Source: an uncultured Candidatus Saccharibacteria bacterium
GTDB lineage: Bacteria; Patescibacteriota; Doudnabacteria; UBA920
Assembly (NCBI GenBank): GCA_964532425.1
Contig: CAZHIA010000005.1
Location: 66,772 to 130,771, forward strand
Reading direction: 5' to 3'
DNA length: 64,000 nucleotides
Below the pieces are notes generated by a model, which was given only the letters and a program-made list of their open reading frames with translations, did not search any database and had not been told where the DNA came from. Below, one piece after another: positions 2,625-28,435 of the stretch (positions are counted from its first letter, which is position 1; each line of letters starts with the position of its first letter). The position numbers and the translations under genes are program-made.

Positions 2625-4691
<2,067 letters not shown>

Positions 4692-18486: not shown

Positions 18487-18563
18487 TGGCGGGGACGGCG
18501 GGGCTCGAACCCGTAACCTCTCGCGTGACAGGCGAGTGCTCTAACCAATTGAGCTACGCCCCC
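18487..18563 (-). tRNA. tRNA-Asp (GTC)
   Basis: GGGGGCGTAGCTCAATTGGTTAGAGCACTCGCCTGTCACGCGAGAGGTTACGGGTTCGAGCCCCGCCGTCCCCGCCA. Anticodon loop CTGTCAC, discriminator G73, encoded CCA. Confidence 0.9.
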
Positions 18564-18717
18564 GTATATTACGCTACTTTGGCCCTGAACCATTCCCCGC
18601 CTTCGGCAGATCAGGTACAAGGCATGAACCAGTCGCACAGCGTGCCGCCCACAAGAAACACTCACGAGCTTATGGCTGTGCCATGAACCGGAGCGAATCC
18701 GATGAGCGACTGGTTCA

Positions 18718-18794
18718 TGGTGCCGGAGAGAGGAATTGCACCTCTGACCTTGGGCTTATGAGTCCCACGCTCTAACTAACTGAGCTACTCCGGC
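18718..18794 (-). tRNA. tRNA-Met (CAT), elongator type. tRNA-Ile2 (lysidine) cannot be excluded.
   Basis: GCCGGAGTAGCTCAGTTAGTTAGAGCGTGGGACTCATAAGCCCAAGG...CTCCGGCACCA. Fully paired G1:C72. Anticodon loop CTCATAA. Confidence 0.85.
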
Positions 18795-18971
18795 CTGATT
18801 TTGCCAGTGTAGCCATTCATTTCTACGGCTGTTCAGCACAACGGTACAGCAGCCCGAATTTGCAGACTACATAAGCATTTTTTGATTTAAAAACCTGCTG
18901 GACAGCAGGAAAAGGCTGTCACGATAGGTATTTAATCAAGGCAGACTTCGATTTAAAATCAAAGGCTATCT

Positions 18972-19048
18972 TGGTTGCGGGACCCGGACTCGAACCGGGA
19001 ACCTCCAGGTTATGAGCCTGGCGAGCTGCCAAATTGCTCTATCCCGCG
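18972..19048 (-). tRNA. initiator tRNA-fMet (CAT)
   Basis: CGCGGGATAGAGCAATTTGGCAGCTCGCCAGGCTCATAACCTGGAGGTTCCCGGTTCGAGTCCGGGTCCCGCAACCA. C1xA72 mismatch. 5' and 3' ends are near-identical to E. coli tRNA-fMet. Confidence 0.9.
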
Positions 19049-19093: not shown

Positions 19094-19173
19094 GTGTTTG
19101 TTTTGATACTTAATATATAGACAAATCTACCAAACAGTGTTATTGTATGAGGTCAAATTTAAGGAGGACAGCG

Positions 19174-20268
19174 ATGAAAAAAGTACTTGTAACCGGCGGG
19201 CCGGTGCATGCGTATTTGGATGCGGTAAAGATTATTACCAATCGCTTCAAAGGCGGTCTTATCTGCGAGCTGGCGGAAAGTTTGTCCCAGATAGGGGCTG
19301 AAGTTACCTATCTCTGTGCGCCCAAAGTCGGGGCGCAGCTGCCACGAACCGATACGGGAATTAAAGTCATTACCCATAACGGGTTTTCTGACTACCACCA
19401 AAAAGTGCTCGAGCTGGCGCCCGGCATGAACAGTGTCATCTTGGGGGCTGCGGTGGCGAATCTGATTCCGGCAAACCCGTTGAAGGGCAAATTCCCAAGC
19501 CACAACTATAAACCCGGTGATCTCATTCCGATCGACTTCACGATCGCACCCCGGGTGATCGACGACATTAAGAAAGCCGCTCCGAACACCCATCTGTTCG
19601 GGTTCAAGCTTCTGTCAGGCGTCAGCCACGAAGAACTGATTCACGCCGCCTACGATATCGTGATCGACGCACACGCCACAGCGGTATTTGCCAACGATGC
19701 GATGCACTTGCAGCAGAAATATGCGGTAACCAAAGAACGCGGCGTGCATCCGCTCCAGCAACACGAACTCGCTTCATGGATATGGGAAGCGATCAATGAC
19801 ACGTACTACGCGACGGTCCTTGCGGGTGAAACCTCGGTTACCTATGGGGACGCAGGCCGCGTAAAAGCACTGATCAACCAGTACTCCGGGCGATTTACAG
19901 CCGTAGAAAACGGCCTCATCTTCGGCACGGTTGCAATGAGGAAAGGTTTCGGGTTTCTGACTACCGGGAGAGGAAAACGGGAGCTTGCTTCCGTTGTGTA
20001 TGTGGAGCAGGTAGACCACGCTACAAAGCAGGTACGCGTAGCCGGGACCGAGAAAGCATCACTCAACGCGCCTCTTCTCGCTACATTGTTCGAAAATCCG
20101 GCGGTGGACCGGATCGTCCATTATCATGAACAGGAACCTGACCTTCCCACGTACCCCTATGCCCCTCCGGGCACGGTTCGCGATAGCCGGCGGCCGAACA
20201 TCACCTCGTTCAATATTGCTGAGCATGGTTGCATGCTGCTGTTCGACAGGCAAGGGAGAAAACTGTAA
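19174..20268 (+). CDS. CoaB-like (phosphopantothenate--cysteine ligase / DFP-fold) protein fused to a roughly 150-aa C-terminal domain of unknown function
   Basis: SD aaggagga precedes the ATG at 19174. The N-terminal roughly 210 aa align with CoaB: VLVTGGPVHAYLDAVKIITNRFKGG..., GAAVANLIP, LFGFKLLSG, VFANDA. The C-terminal part (GFLTTGRGKRELASVVYVEQ...) is unrecognised. Confidence 0.65.
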   Translation: MKKVLVTGGPVHAYLDAVKIITNRFKGGLICELAESLSQIGAEVTYLCAPKVGAQLPRTDTGIKVITHNGFSDYHQKVLELAPGMNSVILGAAVANLIPANPLKGKFPSHNYKPGDLIPIDFTIAPRVIDDIKKAAPNTHLFGFKLLSGVSHEELIHAAYDIVIDAHATAVFANDAMHLQQKYAVTKERGVHPLQQHELASWIWEAINDTYYATVLAGETSVTYGDAGRVKALINQYSGRFTAVENGLIFGTVAMRKGFGFLTTGRGKRELASVVYVEQVDHATKQVRVAGTEKASLNAPLLATLFENPAVDRIVHYHEQEPDLPTYPYAPPGTVRDSRRPNITSFNIAEHGCMLLFDRQGRKL

Positions 20269-20924
20269 TGGCGCACTATCCTGATCACGAAACATACCGC
20301 GCCCTCTATCTTCGCTACATAAACGGACGCGATGTCGGCGAACTCCTATCGCTGTTACAGCCTCTGGAAGACACCCGCGTGCTCGATTTGTGCGGGGGCG
20401 GAGGCGGCTTGACCCTCGAAGCGATCAATTTAGGGGCTGGCACAGTCATACTTGCTGACGAAGAACCAAAAATGGTGCCGCATGGGTTTCTGGAACATCC
20501 CAAAGTGCATGTATACTTTGGTCCTGTTCGTATGACACTGGCGGACCTTATGGAAAAAGGCATTCAATTCGATCGTATTGCTTGCCGGCAGGCGGTCAAC
20601 TACTGGCTTAATGAATCCACGGCTGAAATGGTAGCCGAAGTCATGACACCAGGCGGTATTTTTGCCTTCAACACGTTCAATGTAAAGCCCTCTGAAATAC
20701 CCCGCGTATTGCAGTATGAATTGGAAAACCACACCTTCGTGGAAGTCAGCTGGCTCGTGGAAGATACGGTCCACCACCTGCAGGTGCGCGATGGATTAGA
20801 AGCCCATTCGACTTCGTTCCGATGGCTGTCACCGGAACGTTTCAGGGAGTTGCTCGATCCCTACTTTGCCGTTACCGAACACCGGCACGGAAAGACAAGT
20901 CTGTATCGCTGCATCAAGAAATAA
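20268..20924 (+). CDS. class I SAM-dependent methyltransferase
   Basis: Motif I VLDLCGGGGGLT. The start ATG overlaps the upstream stop (TAATG), indicating translational coupling. MTPGGIFAFN is motif IV-like. Confidence 0.8.
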   Translation: MAHYPDHETYRALYLRYINGRDVGELLSLLQPLEDTRVLDLCGGGGGLTLEAINLGAGTVILADEEPKMVPHGFLEHPKVHVYFGPVRMTLADLMEKGIQFDRIACRQAVNYWLNESTAEMVAEVMTPGGIFAFNTFNVKPSEIPRVLQYELENHTFVEVSWLVEDTVHHLQVRDGLEAHSTSFRWLSPERFRELLDPYFAVTEHRHGKTSLYRCIKK

Positions 20925-21004: not shown

Positions 21005-21643
21005 TCACCCGATGCGGCGAAAGATAAGCTCCCTGCCGATCTTGGCGAGAAAAGCTGCATCGTAGTCAGCGCCGTGCGCGATGCGGCGGTCATCGAGGAT
21101 ACCAAGCCGTTTAAGACTGCTGTCCATACACTTGTCGTATCCACGGTACAGCGAATCCAGATCAATACCACCCCATCCGTATGGCAGCGGCGACCCGGCC
21201 AAGCAATTGCAATAATAACTGATCTGGCCGGCATCAAAGAAGACCGTGTCCGTCACGCCGATAACTTCCTCATACCCCATACACTGCGTGCCGACCCACT
21301 CGATGAATTGCTCCATACCAGCTTTAGGATCTTCCCCTACATCATTCAGAAGCTCCAGAATCCTGTACGGTTCGAACTCGGGACTGGTTGGATCATACCG
21401 CGAATCCCCAGTGAGGCCGTTTTTCGCGATGCAGTGCAGTCCCAGACAGCCAATGCGCATGGCCGACTCCGTGAACTCCCGGGAAATCGGCTTGAACTCA
21501 GCGTAAAATAACCGACCTCGTCGCACCAGTTCGTCAAATGGAAATTCGTGCGGCAGAATGACACAGGCTCCAAGCGAAAGCATGCTATGGACTCCGAGCA
21601 GCGGCCCGGCCGTTTCCACATCGTTAGCTATATACAGTTTCAT
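21005..21643 (-). CDS. DEDDh-family 3'-5' exonuclease (DnaQ/RNase T-like)
   Basis: SD aggagg precedes the ATG at 21643. Exo I is MKLYIANDVETAG. Exo III is HGADYDAAFLAKI. Confidence 0.7.
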   Translation of the reverse strand: MKLYIANDVETAGPLLGVHSMLSLGACVILPHEFPFDELVRRGRLFYAEFKPISREFTESAMRIGCLGLHCIAKNGLTGDSRYDPTSPEFEPYRILELLNDVGEDPKAGMEQFIEWVGTQCMGYEEVIGVTDTVFFDAGQISYYCNCLAGSPLPYGWGGIDLDSLYRGYDKCMDSSLKRLGILDDRRIAHGADYDAAFLAKIGRELIFRRIG

Positions 21644-21724
21644 TGTTCCTCCTAAGATCAAATTAGTATAAAAAAGCGGGGTTGCCTTGTCAAACACACC
21701 TCCCCCTATGATATACTGACCCAT

Positions 21725-22756
21725 ATGAAGATCTCACGGTTGCTTAAATCAAAAAAATATATTTATCCTTTAGGAACACTGCTGCTTATCGGGTCTTTTT
21801 TGGCCGGTCTTGCCGTACAATCAAGGCGTGATAGCCTGCGATTCAAGAACGAGATAAGGACCATTAAGCCAATTAGGGAAAATAATCTCAGCTACCAATT
21901 TATTTACCCCCTTCTGGCCTATGACTTAGGCAAGATTGGCGAATATTTTCGCAATGATGCTTTGGAACTGCAACTTCGCGCATATATTAATCAACAACTG
22001 ACATCCAAAAATGCGGACCAGGTTTCGATATATGCCAAGGATTTTATTGATAATACACAGGCTGGTGTTAACGAAAACACCCGCTTTGAACCAGGGAGTT
22101 TGCTTAAGGTGGCCATTTTGATTGCATATTATAAGCAAGCGGAAACCGAGCCTGCCATACTCGACAAGAATTTTACTTACACAAAGGAGAACGAGCGAGA
22201 AATTAATAGTGTGGGACAGCCTCTTCCTTCGTCACTCAACATTGGCAGTACCTACAGTGTTCCTGAATTGCTGAAAAAAATGATTACTGAATCCGATAAT
22301 GGAGCGGAAAGTATCCTTATAAACAATGTCAGCAGGGCCGTTTTGGATCAAACATTCATTGACCTAAAAATCCCCAACCCAGATACAGCTTCAGAGCCGT
22401 ATGCCATTTCCCCCCGGGAATATGCAGCATTGTTAAGAATCTTATATAATTCAACTTACCTTACTGAAGCTAGTTCAGAAAGCGCTCTGTCAATTATGAC
22501 CCAGTCAACATACACCGCCGGAATAAGGGCATCCGTGCCTCAAAATATACCTGTTGCCCAAAAGTATGGAGAGCGGTTGTCAAAAAATAGCGATGGTAGC
22601 CAAGCAGTTGAACTTCATGATTGCGGAATCGTTTACCATCCGCATCACCCCTATGTTATTTGTATAATGACTCGCGGACGAGACCCGGAAAAATTGGCTC
22701 ATGTCATTGCAGGCGCTTCGAAAATCGTCTACACTGCGTTTGATACGCGTCCTTAA
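21725..22756 (+). CDS. class A beta-lactamase-related serine hydrolase with an N-terminal membrane anchor
   Basis: SxxK (GSLLKV) and SDN (ITESDNGA) motifs. N-terminal TM LGTLLLIGSFLAGLAV. Confidence 0.7.
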   Translation: MKISRLLKSKKYIYPLGTLLLIGSFLAGLAVQSRRDSLRFKNEIRTIKPIRENNLSYQFIYPLLAYDLGKIGEYFRNDALELQLRAYINQQLTSKNADQVSIYAKDFIDNTQAGVNENTRFEPGSLLKVAILIAYYKQAETEPAILDKNFTYTKENEREINSVGQPLPSSLNIGSTYSVPELLKKMITESDNGAESILINNVSRAVLDQTFIDLKIPNPDTASEPYAISPREYAALLRILYNSTYLTEASSESALSIMTQSTYTAGIRASVPQNIPVAQKYGERLSKNSDGSQAVELHDCGIVYHPHHPYVICIMTRGRDPEKLAHVIAGASKIVYTAFDTRP

Positions 22757-22760
22757 GGTT

Positions 22761-22824
22761 AAACAAAAACAAAACCATCCTTCATTTTGAGGATGGTTTC
22801 GTCATGTTTCGCTTGAGGCGAAAC
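22761..22824. terminator. Two adjacent hairpins (aaaccatcct...aggatggttt and gtttcgc-ttgag-gcgaaac) terminating convergent transcripts.
   Basis: The first hairpin has A-run and T-run flanks, so it is bidirectional. The second abuts the stop of the mini-ORF. Confidence 0.5.
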
Positions 22825-22895
22825 TAGATGCGCTTTTTGGAAGACTTCTTCTTAGGAGCAGCCTTCTTTTTTGCGACCTTCTTTTTGGTAGCCAT
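22824..22895 (-). CDS. 23-aa lysine-rich mini-protein MATKKKVAKKKAAPKKKSSKKRI. Candidate only, found by eye.
   Basis: ATG is preceded by the SD gggaga at 5-nt spacing. A hairpin terminator lies immediately after the TAG. It is too short for the ORF track. Confidence 0.35.
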   Translation of the reverse strand: MATKKKVAKKKAAPKKKSSKKRI

Positions 22896-23059
22896 ACTAG
22901 TCTCCCTGAAGCACTGCTAATTTTGGCAGCGCTTCTTAATTTTCTACTTTTGGGCTTTATGCCCAACTAAGTAGCAATAAAAATTCTTTCTGTGTTTTCC
23001 CCCGAGAGTTTGAGTTTCCGAAAATCTATTTTTAAATTTCTGTCATCATTTTAAGATTT

Positions 23060-23767
23060 CTAAAAAAATTTGTCAAGCGTTTCCGGGTTGTTGATAACTT
23101 GTTCGATGCAATTCAAAATTTTTTTATCAGAAATTTTTTTTAATTCCGATTCGATTCTGCCTCGAGATATTTTTTTTATCAAATGAAAATTATTTTTGAG
23201 TGCTCTCGAAGTTTCATGTTCGAAGTCAAAACCGAGCGTCATTGAGAAGCGCAAAGCCCGGATAATACGCAATGGATCTTCGTACAATCTCGTTTCCGGC
23301 TGTCCGATAAAACGCAAAAGTTTTTGTGCAAGATCATTCAACCCATTATGAAAGTCTTCAATCTGCCCGCTATTTGCCTGTAAATATAGGGCATTTACGG
23401 TAAAATCTCGCCTATCGCTGTCGTGCTGTATATCTTGAATGAACGTTACCTTGGGATACCGATTTCCATTGTAGGTTTCATTTCTGAATGTAGTGATTTC
23501 CGCTTGCAGACTCCCCTGCTGTGCAATAACAACGCCAAAATTTTTATGCTTGCTGTCAGCGAAAATACCTGCGGTTCGCAATGCTGAAGCAACCTGTTCA
23601 GGACGTGCGGCCGTTGCCAAGTCAATATCGGATACGGTATGCATGAGCAAAAGGTCGCGAACCAAGCCACCGACAAAATACGCAGAGGAAAAGTTTTCCA
23701 CAAGCAAATTGTAAACCGTTTGCCCGAAGCGTTCCAAGTCTGTCTGAGGTTGAAATTCAATTTTCAT
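23060..23767 (-). CDS. cca: tRNA nucleotidyltransferase (CCA-adding enzyme family), head domain only
   Basis: GGLVRDLLL ... DIDLAT is the class II nucleotidyltransferase signature. 235 aa from the ATG at 23767. The track start at 23782 is a GTG. Confidence 0.75.
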   Translation of the reverse strand: MKIEFQPQTDLERFGQTVYNLLVENFSSAYFVGGLVRDLLLMHTVSDIDLATAARPEQVASALRTAGIFADSKHKNFGVVIAQQGSLQAEITTFRNETYNGNRYPKVTFIQDIQHDSDRRDFTVNALYLQANSGQIEDFHNGLNDLAQKLLRFIGQPETRLYEDPLRIIRALRFSMTLGFDFEHETSRALKNNFHLIKKISRGRIESELKKISDKKILNCIEQVINNPETLDKFF

Positions 23768-23853: not shown

Positions 23854-24306
23854 TTATTCGGAGAGTACGCCTTCGCCCGTAATTGGCGTTCTGCGGTGAG
23901 CATGTTTGCGAGCTACATTGAGACGCATCAGGCTGTGTTCCAGACTGGCAGCAACCTTGGCGTACTCTTCAGCAGTTAAGGTTTCCTCTGCCATTGCCTT
24001 GCGTGCCCGCTCACGAGCAGCTTCGGCAGCATTGAGGTCTATCTCGAAATGATGTTCAGCCGCGTCTGCGAGAACAACAACTTCGCCGCCTTCGCGAATC
24101 TCGACAAAACCGCCGGCCACATAAATATAATAATCATCTTGCTCCGACTTGGCGTGAAGCTCTCCAGGGATGAGGTTCGCCACGAGCGGGATGTGACCGG
24201 GAAGAACGGTAATCTGACCCAGAGATGTCGGGCAGCTTAAACTGCTCAGCTCCTGGGAAAGTACCGTCCGCTCGGGAGTTACTAATTGGAAATGGAATGT
24301 TTTCAT
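23854..24306 (-). CDS. atpC: ATP synthase F1 epsilon subunit
   Basis: MKTFHFQLVTPERTVLSQELSSLSCPTSLGQITVLPGHIPLVANLIPGEL. Start chosen at the ATG at 24306. The track start at 24345 is a TTG lying inside a heptamer repeat block. Confidence 0.8.
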   Translation of the reverse strand: MKTFHFQLVTPERTVLSQELSSLSCPTSLGQITVLPGHIPLVANLIPGELHAKSEQDDYYIYVAGGFVEIREGGEVVVLADAAEHHFEIDLNAAEAARERARKAMAEETLTAEEYAKVAASLEHSLMRLNVARKHAHRRTPITGEGVLSE

Positions 24307-24312
24307 ATTCTG

Positions 24313-24400
24313 GACATTTAACATTTGACCATTGACCTTTGACAAATCATTGTCATTTTTGATTCTAAAATGGTCACATGTTACCTGTTAAAGGTCAAAT
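24313..24400. repeat. Heptamer (TTTGAC / TTTAAC / ATTGAC) repeat blocks in inverted arrangement in the atpD-atpC spacer.
   Basis: Left half in one orientation and right half in the other, giving a composite imperfect palindrome. Confidence 0.6.
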
Positions 24401-24401
24401 G

Positions 24402-25799
<1,398 letters not shown>

Positions 25800-26932: not shown

Positions 26933-28435
26933 TTATTTTACTGTCTGTAAGAACTGATCGATCGCGGTCTTGAGCTTCGCTTCCGTACTTTCGGATAATT
27001 CCTTCGTTTCGCGAATTTCCTTTAAGACATCCTTGGCGTTAGTCTCCATAAAGGAATGGAATTTCGCTTCGGCTTCAGCGATCTTATCAACCGGGATGAC
27101 ATTAAAATGCCCATTACCCACGGCGTACAGGATGGTGACTTCTTTTTCGAGAGAGTACGGAGTATACTGGGGCTGTTTCAAGACTTCGGTCATGCGGCGT
27201 CCGAGATCCAGCTGGCGCTGTGTCTCAGGGTCCAGGTCAGAACCAAACTGGGCAAAGGCTTCGAGCTCGCGGAATTGGGCCAGGGACAGTTTGAGCTTAC
27301 CAGCCACCTTTTTCATAGCCTTAGTCTGTGCGGAAGATCCGACACGGGAGACGGAAATACCGATGTTCAAAGCCGGGCGCACCCCTTTGTAGAACAGATC
27401 GGATTCCAGGAAGATCTGTCCGTCGGTAATGGAAATCACATTGGTTGGGATGTATGCAGAAACATCACCGGCCTGGGTTTCGATAATCGGAAGTGCAGTC
27501 AGGGAACCTCCGCCGAAATCAGGATTCAACTTGGCGGCGCGCTCAAGCAAGCGCGAGTGGAGATAAAACACGTCACCAGGGTAGGCTTCGCGTCCCGGCG
27601 GGCGGCGGAGCAACAAAGAAATTTCACGGTAAGCAACGGCCTGCTTGGAAAGGTCATCGTAAACGATCAAGGCGTCCTTGCCCTGGTCCATGAAATATTC
27701 CCCGATTGCGCAACCAGCATACGGAGCAATGTAGGAAAGAGCGGCCGGTTCGGAAGCGGAAGCGGATACAACAACGGTGTATTCCATGGCGCCGTGCTTT
27801 TCCAATTCGGTCACGATCTTTGCAATCTTGCTTTCCTTTTGACCAATGGCTACATAAATACAGATCATGTTCTGGCCTTTTTGGTTGATGATCGTATCGA
27901 TAGCTACGGCAGTCTTGCCGGTTTGGCGGTCACCGATAATGAGTTCGCGCTGGCCGCGGCCAATGGGAATCAAAGCGTCAATCGCTTTAATACCGGTCTG
28001 CACCGGCTGGCGCACGCCAAGACGCGTAATAACGCCAGGAGCGATTTTTTCTACGGGATAAAACAGGCTGGAGGCAATCGCGCCCTTGCCGTCTTTGGGT
28101 TCACCAAGTGCGGACACGGTTCGACCAATAAGGGCATCTCCGACCGGAACGGACAGAATCTTGCCGGTACTGCGAACCGTATCACCAACTTTAATCTCGT
28201 GGAAATCACCGAGCACGACCGCACCCACCATATCCTCTTCCAGGTTCAAAGCCACTCCGACGATATTATGGCCGAAATCGAGCATTTCCATAGATGCGAC
28301 TTCGGTCAAGCCCGATACCCGAGCCACACCGTCGCCGACTTCGACCACGGTTCCAACCTTCTCGACTTTGACGTCCGGGCTGAACCCGGCGATCTTATCT
28401 TTAAGCTGTTTGACTAATGTGTCTTGTGTTGCCAT
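26933..28435 (-). CDS. atpA: ATP synthase F1 alpha subunit
   Basis: [18 protein letters not shown]. 500 aa. Confidence 0.95.

Follow-up and report, generated by a model that had tools for sequence, protein, structure and literature searches.

Expression of the proteins Hc1 and Hc2 is tightly controlled post-transcriptionally, and plasticity in length through the gain and loss of repeats is typical of disordered polycations such as Hc2 and AlgP rather than of fixed-pocket proteins. The ~ 30-amino-acid (aa) peptide ScvA of the small-cell variants of Coxiella burnetii, which is basic and binds DNA, is thought to condense chromatin in these very small cells. Autoregulated ribosomal-protein genes classically have a structured leader directly 5′ of the Shine-Dalgarno (SD) sequence. 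Among the tiny ribosomal proteins, bS22 and eL41 are 55–65% basic, and bL37 was annotated as a hypothetical protein until a cryo-electron microscopy map showed it (PMC10085706). Here we describe a Lys-rich mini-gene of 23 codons and its two-hairpin leader RNA on the minus strand of a 64,000-nucleotide (nt) stretch of DNA from an uncultured Candidatus Saccharibacteria bacterium (GTDB lineage Patescibacteriota; Doudnabacteria; assembly GCA_964532425.1, contig CAZHIA010000005.1, positions 66,772 to 130,771), referred to in the following as the window. Judged from the sequence, the mini-open reading frame (mini-ORF) is very probably a real, translated gene.

The mini-gene family shares with Hc2/HctB (PF07382, NF038052), NF038053 and AlgP an extreme content of Lys, Arg and Ala (and Pro), short tandem repeats in its long forms, a lack of acidic and hydrophobic residues, and a length that varies with repeat number. 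These H1-like proteins are ~ 165–240 aa long and come from a different phylum, whereas the family described here spans 14–68 aa and is further set apart by a conserved two-hairpin leader of its own; homology is not demonstrable for such low-complexity sequence. The tiny ribosomal proteins bS22/eL41, bL37 and THX are also alike in being 20–35 aa long, more than 50% basic and easily missed by gene callers, but they have a defined, conserved sequence and a fixed length, whereas the mini-protein family is of low complexity and variable length. ScvA offers an analogy as a very short, highly basic, stand-alone peptide, although it is rich in Arg and Gln rather than in Lys and unrelated in sequence, and we know of no comparable leader for it. 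Autoregulatory ribosomal-protein leaders and the cis-regulatory 5′ untranslated regions collected in Rfam resemble the locus in having covarying hairpins directly 5′ of the SD in front of a gene for a basic, RNA-binding protein (a role that is putative here), but no Rfam 15 family fits the mini-gene leader. The predicted peptide matches no known family; its composition makes it a new and extremely short variant of the H1-like or tiny basic proteins of bacteria.

The mini-gene occupies 22895..22824 (minus strand), where an ATG is followed by a frame of 23 codons in all and a TAG. Its product, MATKKKVAKKKAAPKKKSSKKRI, has 11 Lys, 1 Arg and no acidic residue, giving a net charge of ~ +12. The mini-ORF cannot extend further because an in-frame TAG lies 8 codons 5′ of the ATG with no start codon in between. 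An earlier note made from the letters of this stretch had described the same 23-codon, 11-Lys frame and a GGGAGA start signal 5 nt before the ATG, and both were as it had stated: GGGAGA lies at 22906..22901 (minus), followed by CTAGT and then the ATG. The complete SD block is GGGAGACUAG (22897..22906, minus), with the ATG 1 nt on in the window and 4–5 nt on in relatives. This block was invariant across 26 of 26 aligned sequences, and one further relative, L116, carries the variant AGGAGACUAG.

An open frame is weak evidence by itself at this locus, because the purine-rich AAR runs leave all three sense frames open. Two other ORFs overlap the mini-gene, namely a 54-aa ORF with a TTG start in a different frame (22802..22966, minus) and a Phe/Leu-rich 30-aa antisense ORF (22828..22920, plus). 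The TTG ORF starts within P2, the first of the two leader hairpins, has no SD and varies in start and length among relatives. In the six frames of the window, only the mini-ORF combines an ATG start with a length of 20 aa or more and a Lys content of 45% or more, and none of 200 windows simulated with a first-order Markov model contained an ORF of this kind.

Relatives were reached through the neighboring gene cca: contigs with homologs of the short cca of the window (~ 45–65% identical) were scanned for basic mini-ORFs. In total, we obtained 31 distinct loci from Doudnabacteria-related Patescibacteria with the mini-gene site just downstream of a short cca, the identity of which is only ~ 45–55% among these loci; in all 29 with enough sequence there was a Lys/Arg-rich ORF of 14–68 codons. 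The shared architecture is a structured leader, then GGGAGACUAG, then 1–5 nt and AUGGC. This arrangement was reached through cca homologs in L001, L083, L087, L089, L090 and L113–L117, and peptides encoded at the equivalent site include MAAKKKAKKKVAKKKGGKKKRA (L083), MAKKKAKKKTTKKKSASKKRR (L001), MAKKKKKAAKRKKRR (L087), MATKKKAKKKVAKKKTTKKSSKKRA (L089), MAAKKKKRVVKKKKSGSKKKRA (L090) and MAKKKKVAKKKKVASKKKRR (L113). In these loci, the DNA 5′ of the ATG proved to be conserved in its nucleotides, and we therefore scanned a metagenome collection with a leader-only pattern that demands neither an ATG nor an ORF (GTAGAAA-N13-20-CAAAAYYAG-N8-14-GGGAGACTAG) and recovered 22 loci, two of which repeated loci already obtained. 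In 21 of the 21 with enough sequence, an ATG was present 4–5 nt past GGGAGACTAG and opened an ORF of 14–31 codons of the form MA[AT]?K3-5..K3-4..KKR[RAIVS]. All of them lie directly 3′ of a short cca that contains the promoter described below.

The synteny has an exception in L082, the closest cca relative (65% identity), which has no promoter, leader or mini-gene at this place (1290–1511). Its cca has a shorter C-terminus whose end is overlapped by a convergent gene, and the contig, at 1.5 kb, is too short to exclude relocation. Searching the GTDB genomes with the single cca protein gave no relatives. The patterns from a search of GTDB with a cca alignment were generic and yielded 80 loci across bacteria, of which L001 alone was relevant; the other 79 cca loci were used as negative controls. 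In viral contigs we did not detect a match to the leader, and a viral origin is unsupported.

Ten close ungapped pairs of mini-ORFs differ in the ATG frame by 32 synonymous and 13 non-synonymous changes, an indicative ratio of non-synonymous to synonymous change (pN/pS) of 0.11, whereas the same pairs gave 1.98 and 0.88 in the +1 and +2 frames, respectively. Of the 45 differences, 32 fell on third codon positions, 9 on second and 4 on first positions. Non-Lys positions and the C-terminal KKR[RA] are also under selection, and the SD-to-ATG register is kept in all loci. Purifying selection confined to one frame, together with a start context that relatives share, thus marks a protein-coding gene, and the peptide is probably translated in vivo. 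In L094, L100 and L105, one identical 20-aa peptide is encoded by differing DNA, and the upstream leaders differ too. Codon usage is also distinctive: AAG makes up a fraction of 0.60 of the Lys codons in mini-ORFs versus 0.45 in the long ORFs of the window, and the longest A-run has a mean length of 6.0 versus 7.35 after shuffling of the Lys codons (p ~ 0.0005). The short A-runs and the order of the Lys codons fit selection against poly(A) slippage.

The start region itself has two further features. The second codon is GCU in 26 of 26 short forms, and a weak hairpin of 3–5 bp, UAGC(C)…(G)GCUA (22891–22900, minus; also in relatives), could enclose the AUG. Every position of this hairpin is invariant, so covariation gives no test of its pairing.

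The mini-gene has been missed by annotation. The gene calls of L081 (a Logan contig with the same sequence), L083, L087, L089, L090 and L113 leave the interval between cca and the following gene empty, and when ten peptides of 20–31 aa, including that of the window, were looked up among ~ 15 billion predicted proteins, none was present. The earlier note had called the ORF unannotated and had pointed to synteny downstream of cca and to conservation of amino acids rather than of nucleotides as the signs of a real gene; the empty gap in L081 and the absence of the exact peptide, the same site in 31 loci, and the low pN/pS in the ATG frame bear this out. A profile search of 5.8 billion proteins with the peptide alignment A3 returned two mis-called long forms and nothing else, and an exhaustive phmmer search with one long form, P0121, added P0123 and P0124 as the sole further proteins. 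Because protein-level search is ineffective for such a low-complexity family, the leader RNA is the usable family marker. In the literature on small lysine-rich or H1-like proteins of the candidate phyla radiation (CPR), we found nothing specific.

The ~ 145-nt leader contains two hairpins. The second, P3 (22935..22908, minus), consists of a 10-bp stem, GAAGCGCUGC/GCAGUGCUUC, and the 8-nt loop CAAAAUUA (22918–22925; consensus CAAAAUYA), and ends 1 nt before the SD. When 27 sequences were aligned on the loop without gaps, 91.9% of the cells were paired versus 27–44% with a slid partner. Cells with a double change numbered 72, against 23.4 ± 4.1 in shuffles (reached in 0 of 500), and covariation was observed at 8 of the 10 pairs. 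The long-form relatives keep the P3 stem, with differing loops. The first hairpin, P2 (22974..22944, minus), has an invariant outer stem, CUAC(U)/(A)GUAG, that was recovered by RNAalifold, and in the window an inner hairpin, UUGGGC-AUAAA-GCCCAA. P2 folds in 30 of 30 sequences with a mean z of −4.25 versus shuffles, and its inner stems are unrelated in sequence between lineages yet always self-complementary. With compensatory changes in P3 and consistent folding of P2, the leader is a structured cis-acting RNA. P2 and P3 are separated by the linker AAAAUUAA (22936..22943, minus), the columns of which are nearly invariant in alignment A2; GTAGAAAATTAAGAAG is found once in the window.

Further 5′, an A-rich leader segment with the motif GGAAAC..AAA..GGGGG..AACAGAAA (23019..22986, minus) appears single-stranded, and the motif GAAACGAAAA-n-GGGGG-n-AAAAACAGAAA is present in most relatives. 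We did not find a pairing partner for the segment, nor did comparison by eye reveal consistent, covarying pairing among the GGGGG motif, the SD and the pyrimidine tract that follows the stop codon. The region 5′ of P2 tolerates lineage-specific insertions of 80–150 nt, some with hairpins, and in one sub-clade GAAACGAAAA…GGGGG is replaced by another conserved block (…CAGCGU…AUCAGCG…). The leaders compared for the insertions and the replacement block were L001, L109 and L111, and L090, L091, L093, L094, L105 and L113.

A covariance model of the leader, R1, was built from 26 sequences and run on the window, the relatives and the control loci. It gave one match in the window (83 bits) and found the held-out L113–L117 at 48–80 bits (E 4e-15 to 6e-8). 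No match was significant in the 79 other bacterial cca loci, which include Saccharibacteria, Parcubacteria and Falkowbacteria; the best was L078 with 16.9 bits (E 0.53). When the window and nine related loci were compared with Rfam 15 at gathering thresholds, only tRNAs and one group I intron passed, and a permissive Rfam scan of 22700..23120 gave only sub-threshold matches at chance level, the best (E 0.07–0.24) being unrelated microRNA and small RNA (sRNA) models on the terminator. The two-hairpin leader is a structured RNA motif that is absent from Rfam and previously undescribed, and it is the most novel part of the locus. An identity as transfer-messenger RNA, tRNA-like RNA or a known sRNA was rejected, as ARAGORN and Rfam found none and there is no element resembling a T-arm or acceptor.

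Behind the same leader and at the same place, L114, L115 and L116 carry long ORFs of 57 aa (MAVKKRKAAKRPAKRKVAKKAAKRRPAKK…), 68 aa and 50 aa, respectively. These long forms are repeat proteins of the AKKAAKRPA type, rich in Arg, Ala and Pro. The Hc2/H1-like models are the only families on which they score, in all cases below threshold: L115 reached 20.6 bits on PF07382 (gathering 40) and 17.3 bits on NF038052 (cut-off 135), too low for membership of Hc2, and on the Burkholderiales H1-like model NF038053 (cut-off 80), where the short forms gave no match, L115 and L116 reached 18.2 and 9.2 bits. The 23-aa and 31-aa peptides had no match at E ≤ 10 in Pfam and NCBIfam, where the composition filters of HMMER may hide weak ones. 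There was no sequence match to the tiny ribosomal proteins bS22, bL37, THX and Sra either, and a range of 14–68 aa produced by repeat gain and loss is at odds with the conserved length and defined sequence of such proteins. Some database entries of long relatives proved to be mis-called: P0121, P0122 and P0124 (L117, 2832–3022) have spurious N-termini because the calls read through the leader (…VEKLR.E.K.FVSGRLAQM…). Separately, positions 1–45 of L105 (OBLW0100128524.1) are Illumina adapter sequence at the contig start (…ACACTCTTTCCCTACACGACGCTCTTCCGATCT), an assembly artefact.

The mini-ORF is predicted to form a monocistronic unit of ~ 280 nt, because it has its own promoter, leader, SD and terminator. 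The promoter (23076..23048, minus) comprises a −35 TTGACA (23076..23071), a 17-nt spacer and a −10 TAAAAT (23053..23048), which together match the consensus at 11 of 12 positions. Its −35 element falls in the final codons of cca (…LDKFF*), transcription is predicted to start at ~ 23041 (minus), and TTGACA-17-TA(A/G/C)AAT is found at the equivalent site in most relatives. Downstream of the ORF, the hairpin GUUUCGC-CUCAA-GCGAAAC (22806..22824, minus) overlaps the G of the stop codon, and relatives are predicted to form a small hairpin of unrelated sequence at the same place. It is followed by an intrinsic terminator, AAACCAUCC-UCAAAAUGA-AGGAUGGUUU and a U-run (22761..22803, minus), in which a 14-bp hairpin (22803..22768) is followed by a tail to ~ 22761. 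The terminator is bidirectional and also ends the convergent gene at 21725..22756 (plus), and its stem shows compensatory changes in relatives (CCAUCC/GGAUGG, CCACCC/GGGUGG, CCGUCC/GGACGG, CCGCUC/GAGCGG). The earlier note had recorded both of these hairpins (22824..22806 and 22803..22768) and had likened the peptide to H1 tails and tiny ribosomal proteins while assigning it to no family, which agrees with the empty Pfam and NCBIfam searches and the sub-threshold scores of the long forms. Its mini-gene interpretation is supported as far as it went; what it lacked were the promoter, the ~ 145-nt two-hairpin leader and the homologs of 14–68 aa.

The terminator loop UCAAAAUGA (within 22768–22803) resembles the P3 loop CAAAAUUA on the same strand. 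The likeness extends to most relatives, in which the terminator loop is approximately YCAAAAU-A, and the P3-like loop is missing in L104 and L111. It may reflect a shared trans-acting partner or a coincidence of A-rich loops.

On balance, we lean toward a mechanism analogous to that of a histone H1 tail, with the peptide as a disordered polycationic binder of nucleic acid. A strong sigma-70-type promoter in the end of cca would drive the ~ 280-nt monocistronic RNA, from which a product of 23 residues with a charge of ~ +12, no acidic residue and no hydrophobic core would be made. The product of a conserved gene with strong expression signals is probably abundant. The window peptide is the minimal form of an Ala/Lys/Arg/Pro-rich polycation family of 14–68 aa confined to one Doudnabacteria-related clade. 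As an abundant disordered polycation, it would bind polyanionic nucleic acid electrostatically and, in the manner of AlgP, chlamydial Hc2 or the tail of histone H1, neutralize charge and compact DNA or RNA in very small cells. The plasticity in length favors such a non-specific binder over a fixed-pocket protein. P2 and P3 just 5′ of the SD are a putative translational control element; since they abut the SD, they would be well placed to control 30S loading. The simplest model would be autoregulation, in which surplus free peptide may bind its own leader and block 30S loading.

Several observations weigh against this reading. The 23-aa peptide of the window matches no family, and the H1-like resemblance is one of composition and falls below every family threshold. 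Genes for autoregulated ribosomal proteins likewise typically have a structured leader adjoining the SD, and a basic content of 52–65% fits bS22 and eL41 equally well (PMC10085706). Nucleotides are conserved beyond coding need, in the GCU second codon of the short forms and in the terminator loop, so that the RNA may have a role of its own. In addition, neither the pairs compared for pN/pS nor the sequences compared for covariation are phylogenetically independent, and the statistics are therefore indicative, though the signal is one-sided.

The most serious alternative, which we nonetheless consider rather unlikely, is a new lineage-specific tiny ribosomal protein that sits in a groove of the rRNA, with leader hairpins that mimic the rRNA site for autogenous repression. 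The covarying leader directly 5′ of the SD and the strong, conserved promoter, SD and terminator, as expected for an abundant product, would suit such a protein, as would a composition (52–65% basic) that overlaps the 55–65% of bS22 and eL41 (PMC10085706). CPR ribosomes are without uL30 and often without bL9 and uL1, and parcubacterial uS19 carries an Ala/Lys-rich C-terminal extension of ~ 25 aa (PMC9297842), both of which count in favor of this alternative. A protein bound at a fixed site is, however, hard to reconcile with a low-complexity family whose members vary between 14 and 68 aa as repeats are gained and lost, whereas bS22 is 85% identical between C. acnes and M. smegmatis (PMC10085706). 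No ribosomal-protein model matched at E ≤ 10, and the location between cca and a tRNA cluster is outside the ribosomal-protein operons. The chance reading, in which the mini-ORF is accidental or the true gene is the 54-aa TTG ORF or the 30-aa antisense ORF, has a negligible probability. Both alternative ORFs exist and the AAR runs are open in three sense frames, but we regard this reading as refuted by the conserved ORF in relatives, by selection in the ATG frame and not in the others (pN/pS 1.98 and 0.88), and by the Markov simulation with its 0 of 200 windows; the SD-to-ATG register is kept in all loci, and the TTG ORF begins in P2 without an SD and is conserved neither in start nor in length.

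The constant association with cca allows a different role for the peptide, as the detached basic RNA-binding tail of a split CCA-adding system or a tRNA partner that replaces the lost body and tail domains; it would supply tRNA affinity in trans, with the leader coupling peptide level to RNA load. Every mini-gene locus has a short cca (207–240 aa) directly upstream with the mini-gene promoter inside it, a tRNA-Met/Met/Asp cluster usually follows, and Saccharibacteria, Parcubacteria and Falkowbacteria loci with a cca of 485–510 aa (L020, L023, L048, L049, L063, L067 and L074) have no such leader or ORF nearby. Yet a single clade has both the short cca and the mini-gene, and their joint occurrence may only be due to common ancestry and a frozen gene order. 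The atp operon shows the same linkage, and the mini-gene has its own promoter and terminator and is not co-translated with cca. Moreover, the tRNA genes of the window carry their own CCA ends, so that cca activity is probably for repair only, and L082, the closest cca relative, is without a mini-gene directly downstream (on a contig of just 1.5 kb). We consider both the supply of tRNA affinity in trans and the coupling by the leader improbable. Equally improbable, in our estimate, is that the ORF is a regulatory leader peptide (an attenuator or Lys-sensing upstream ORF) or is incidental to a functional sRNA. A short ORF rich in a single residue, followed by a hairpin and a terminator, does resemble a classical attenuator; coding need does not account for all the nucleotide conservation in the leader, at the invariant GCU second codon and in the terminator loop; and CAAAAU-A, common to the P3 and terminator loops, suggests one trans-acting partner. 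An attenuator would act on a downstream gene, however, and no same-strand downstream gene is conserved: the window has a convergent gene, and in relatives the tRNA cluster occurs in either orientation with differing intervening genes. Purifying selection specific to the ATG frame, including non-Lys positions and the C-terminal KKR[RA], the long forms of 50–68 aa rich in Arg, Ala and Pro, and the lack of an Rfam family at threshold also argue against a leader peptide or sRNA.

A large part of bacterial diversity belongs to the Patescibacteria, in whose tiny cells DNA organization and the assembly of reduced ribosomes are largely obscure. The mini-gene lies below the length limits of gene callers and is thereby invisible to standard annotation, and shotgun proteomics would miss its product, as trypsin would cut it into pieces no longer than a few residues. 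The leader can be modeled (R1) and traced across genomes, which provides an entry to a new small-protein family and to a new cis-regulatory RNA of a lineage that has not been cultivated.

The cca gene upstream of the mini-gene (23060..23767, minus) encodes a half-size class II nucleotidyltransferase of 235 aa with head and neck only (PF01743, PF12627), which is under the cut-off of the NCBIfam CCA equivalog owing to its length. P0001 is 100% identical to it, with the annotated start at a downstream ATG and not at the GTG. The cca homologs, where named, are from Candidatus Doudnabacteria or the Patescibacteria group. In minus-strand order, the atp operon (alpha 26933–28435, gamma, beta 24402–25796, epsilon 23854–24345) is followed by cca, then by the 300-nt gap that houses the mini-ORF, and then by the convergent class-A-beta-lactamase-like gene (21725–22756, plus). 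Comparison of L001, L083, L087, L089 and L114–L116 indicates an apparent ancestral order of atp operon, cca, mini-gene and tRNA-Met/Met/Asp. In the window, ~ 3.7 kb with four genes, resembling an insertion, separate the mini-gene from the tRNA cluster (18487–19048, minus): the beta-lactamase-like gene (21725–22756), a gene for an unknown protein of 239 aa (21005–21724), a methyltransferase-like gene (20229–20924) and a 373-aa gene (19147–20268). In L090, a group I intron (RF00028, 70 bits; 4099–4291) lies 5′ of the tRNA genes that follow the mini-gene. Of the usual three tRNAs, ARAGORN gives only two at this locus, and the third is possibly split by the intron.

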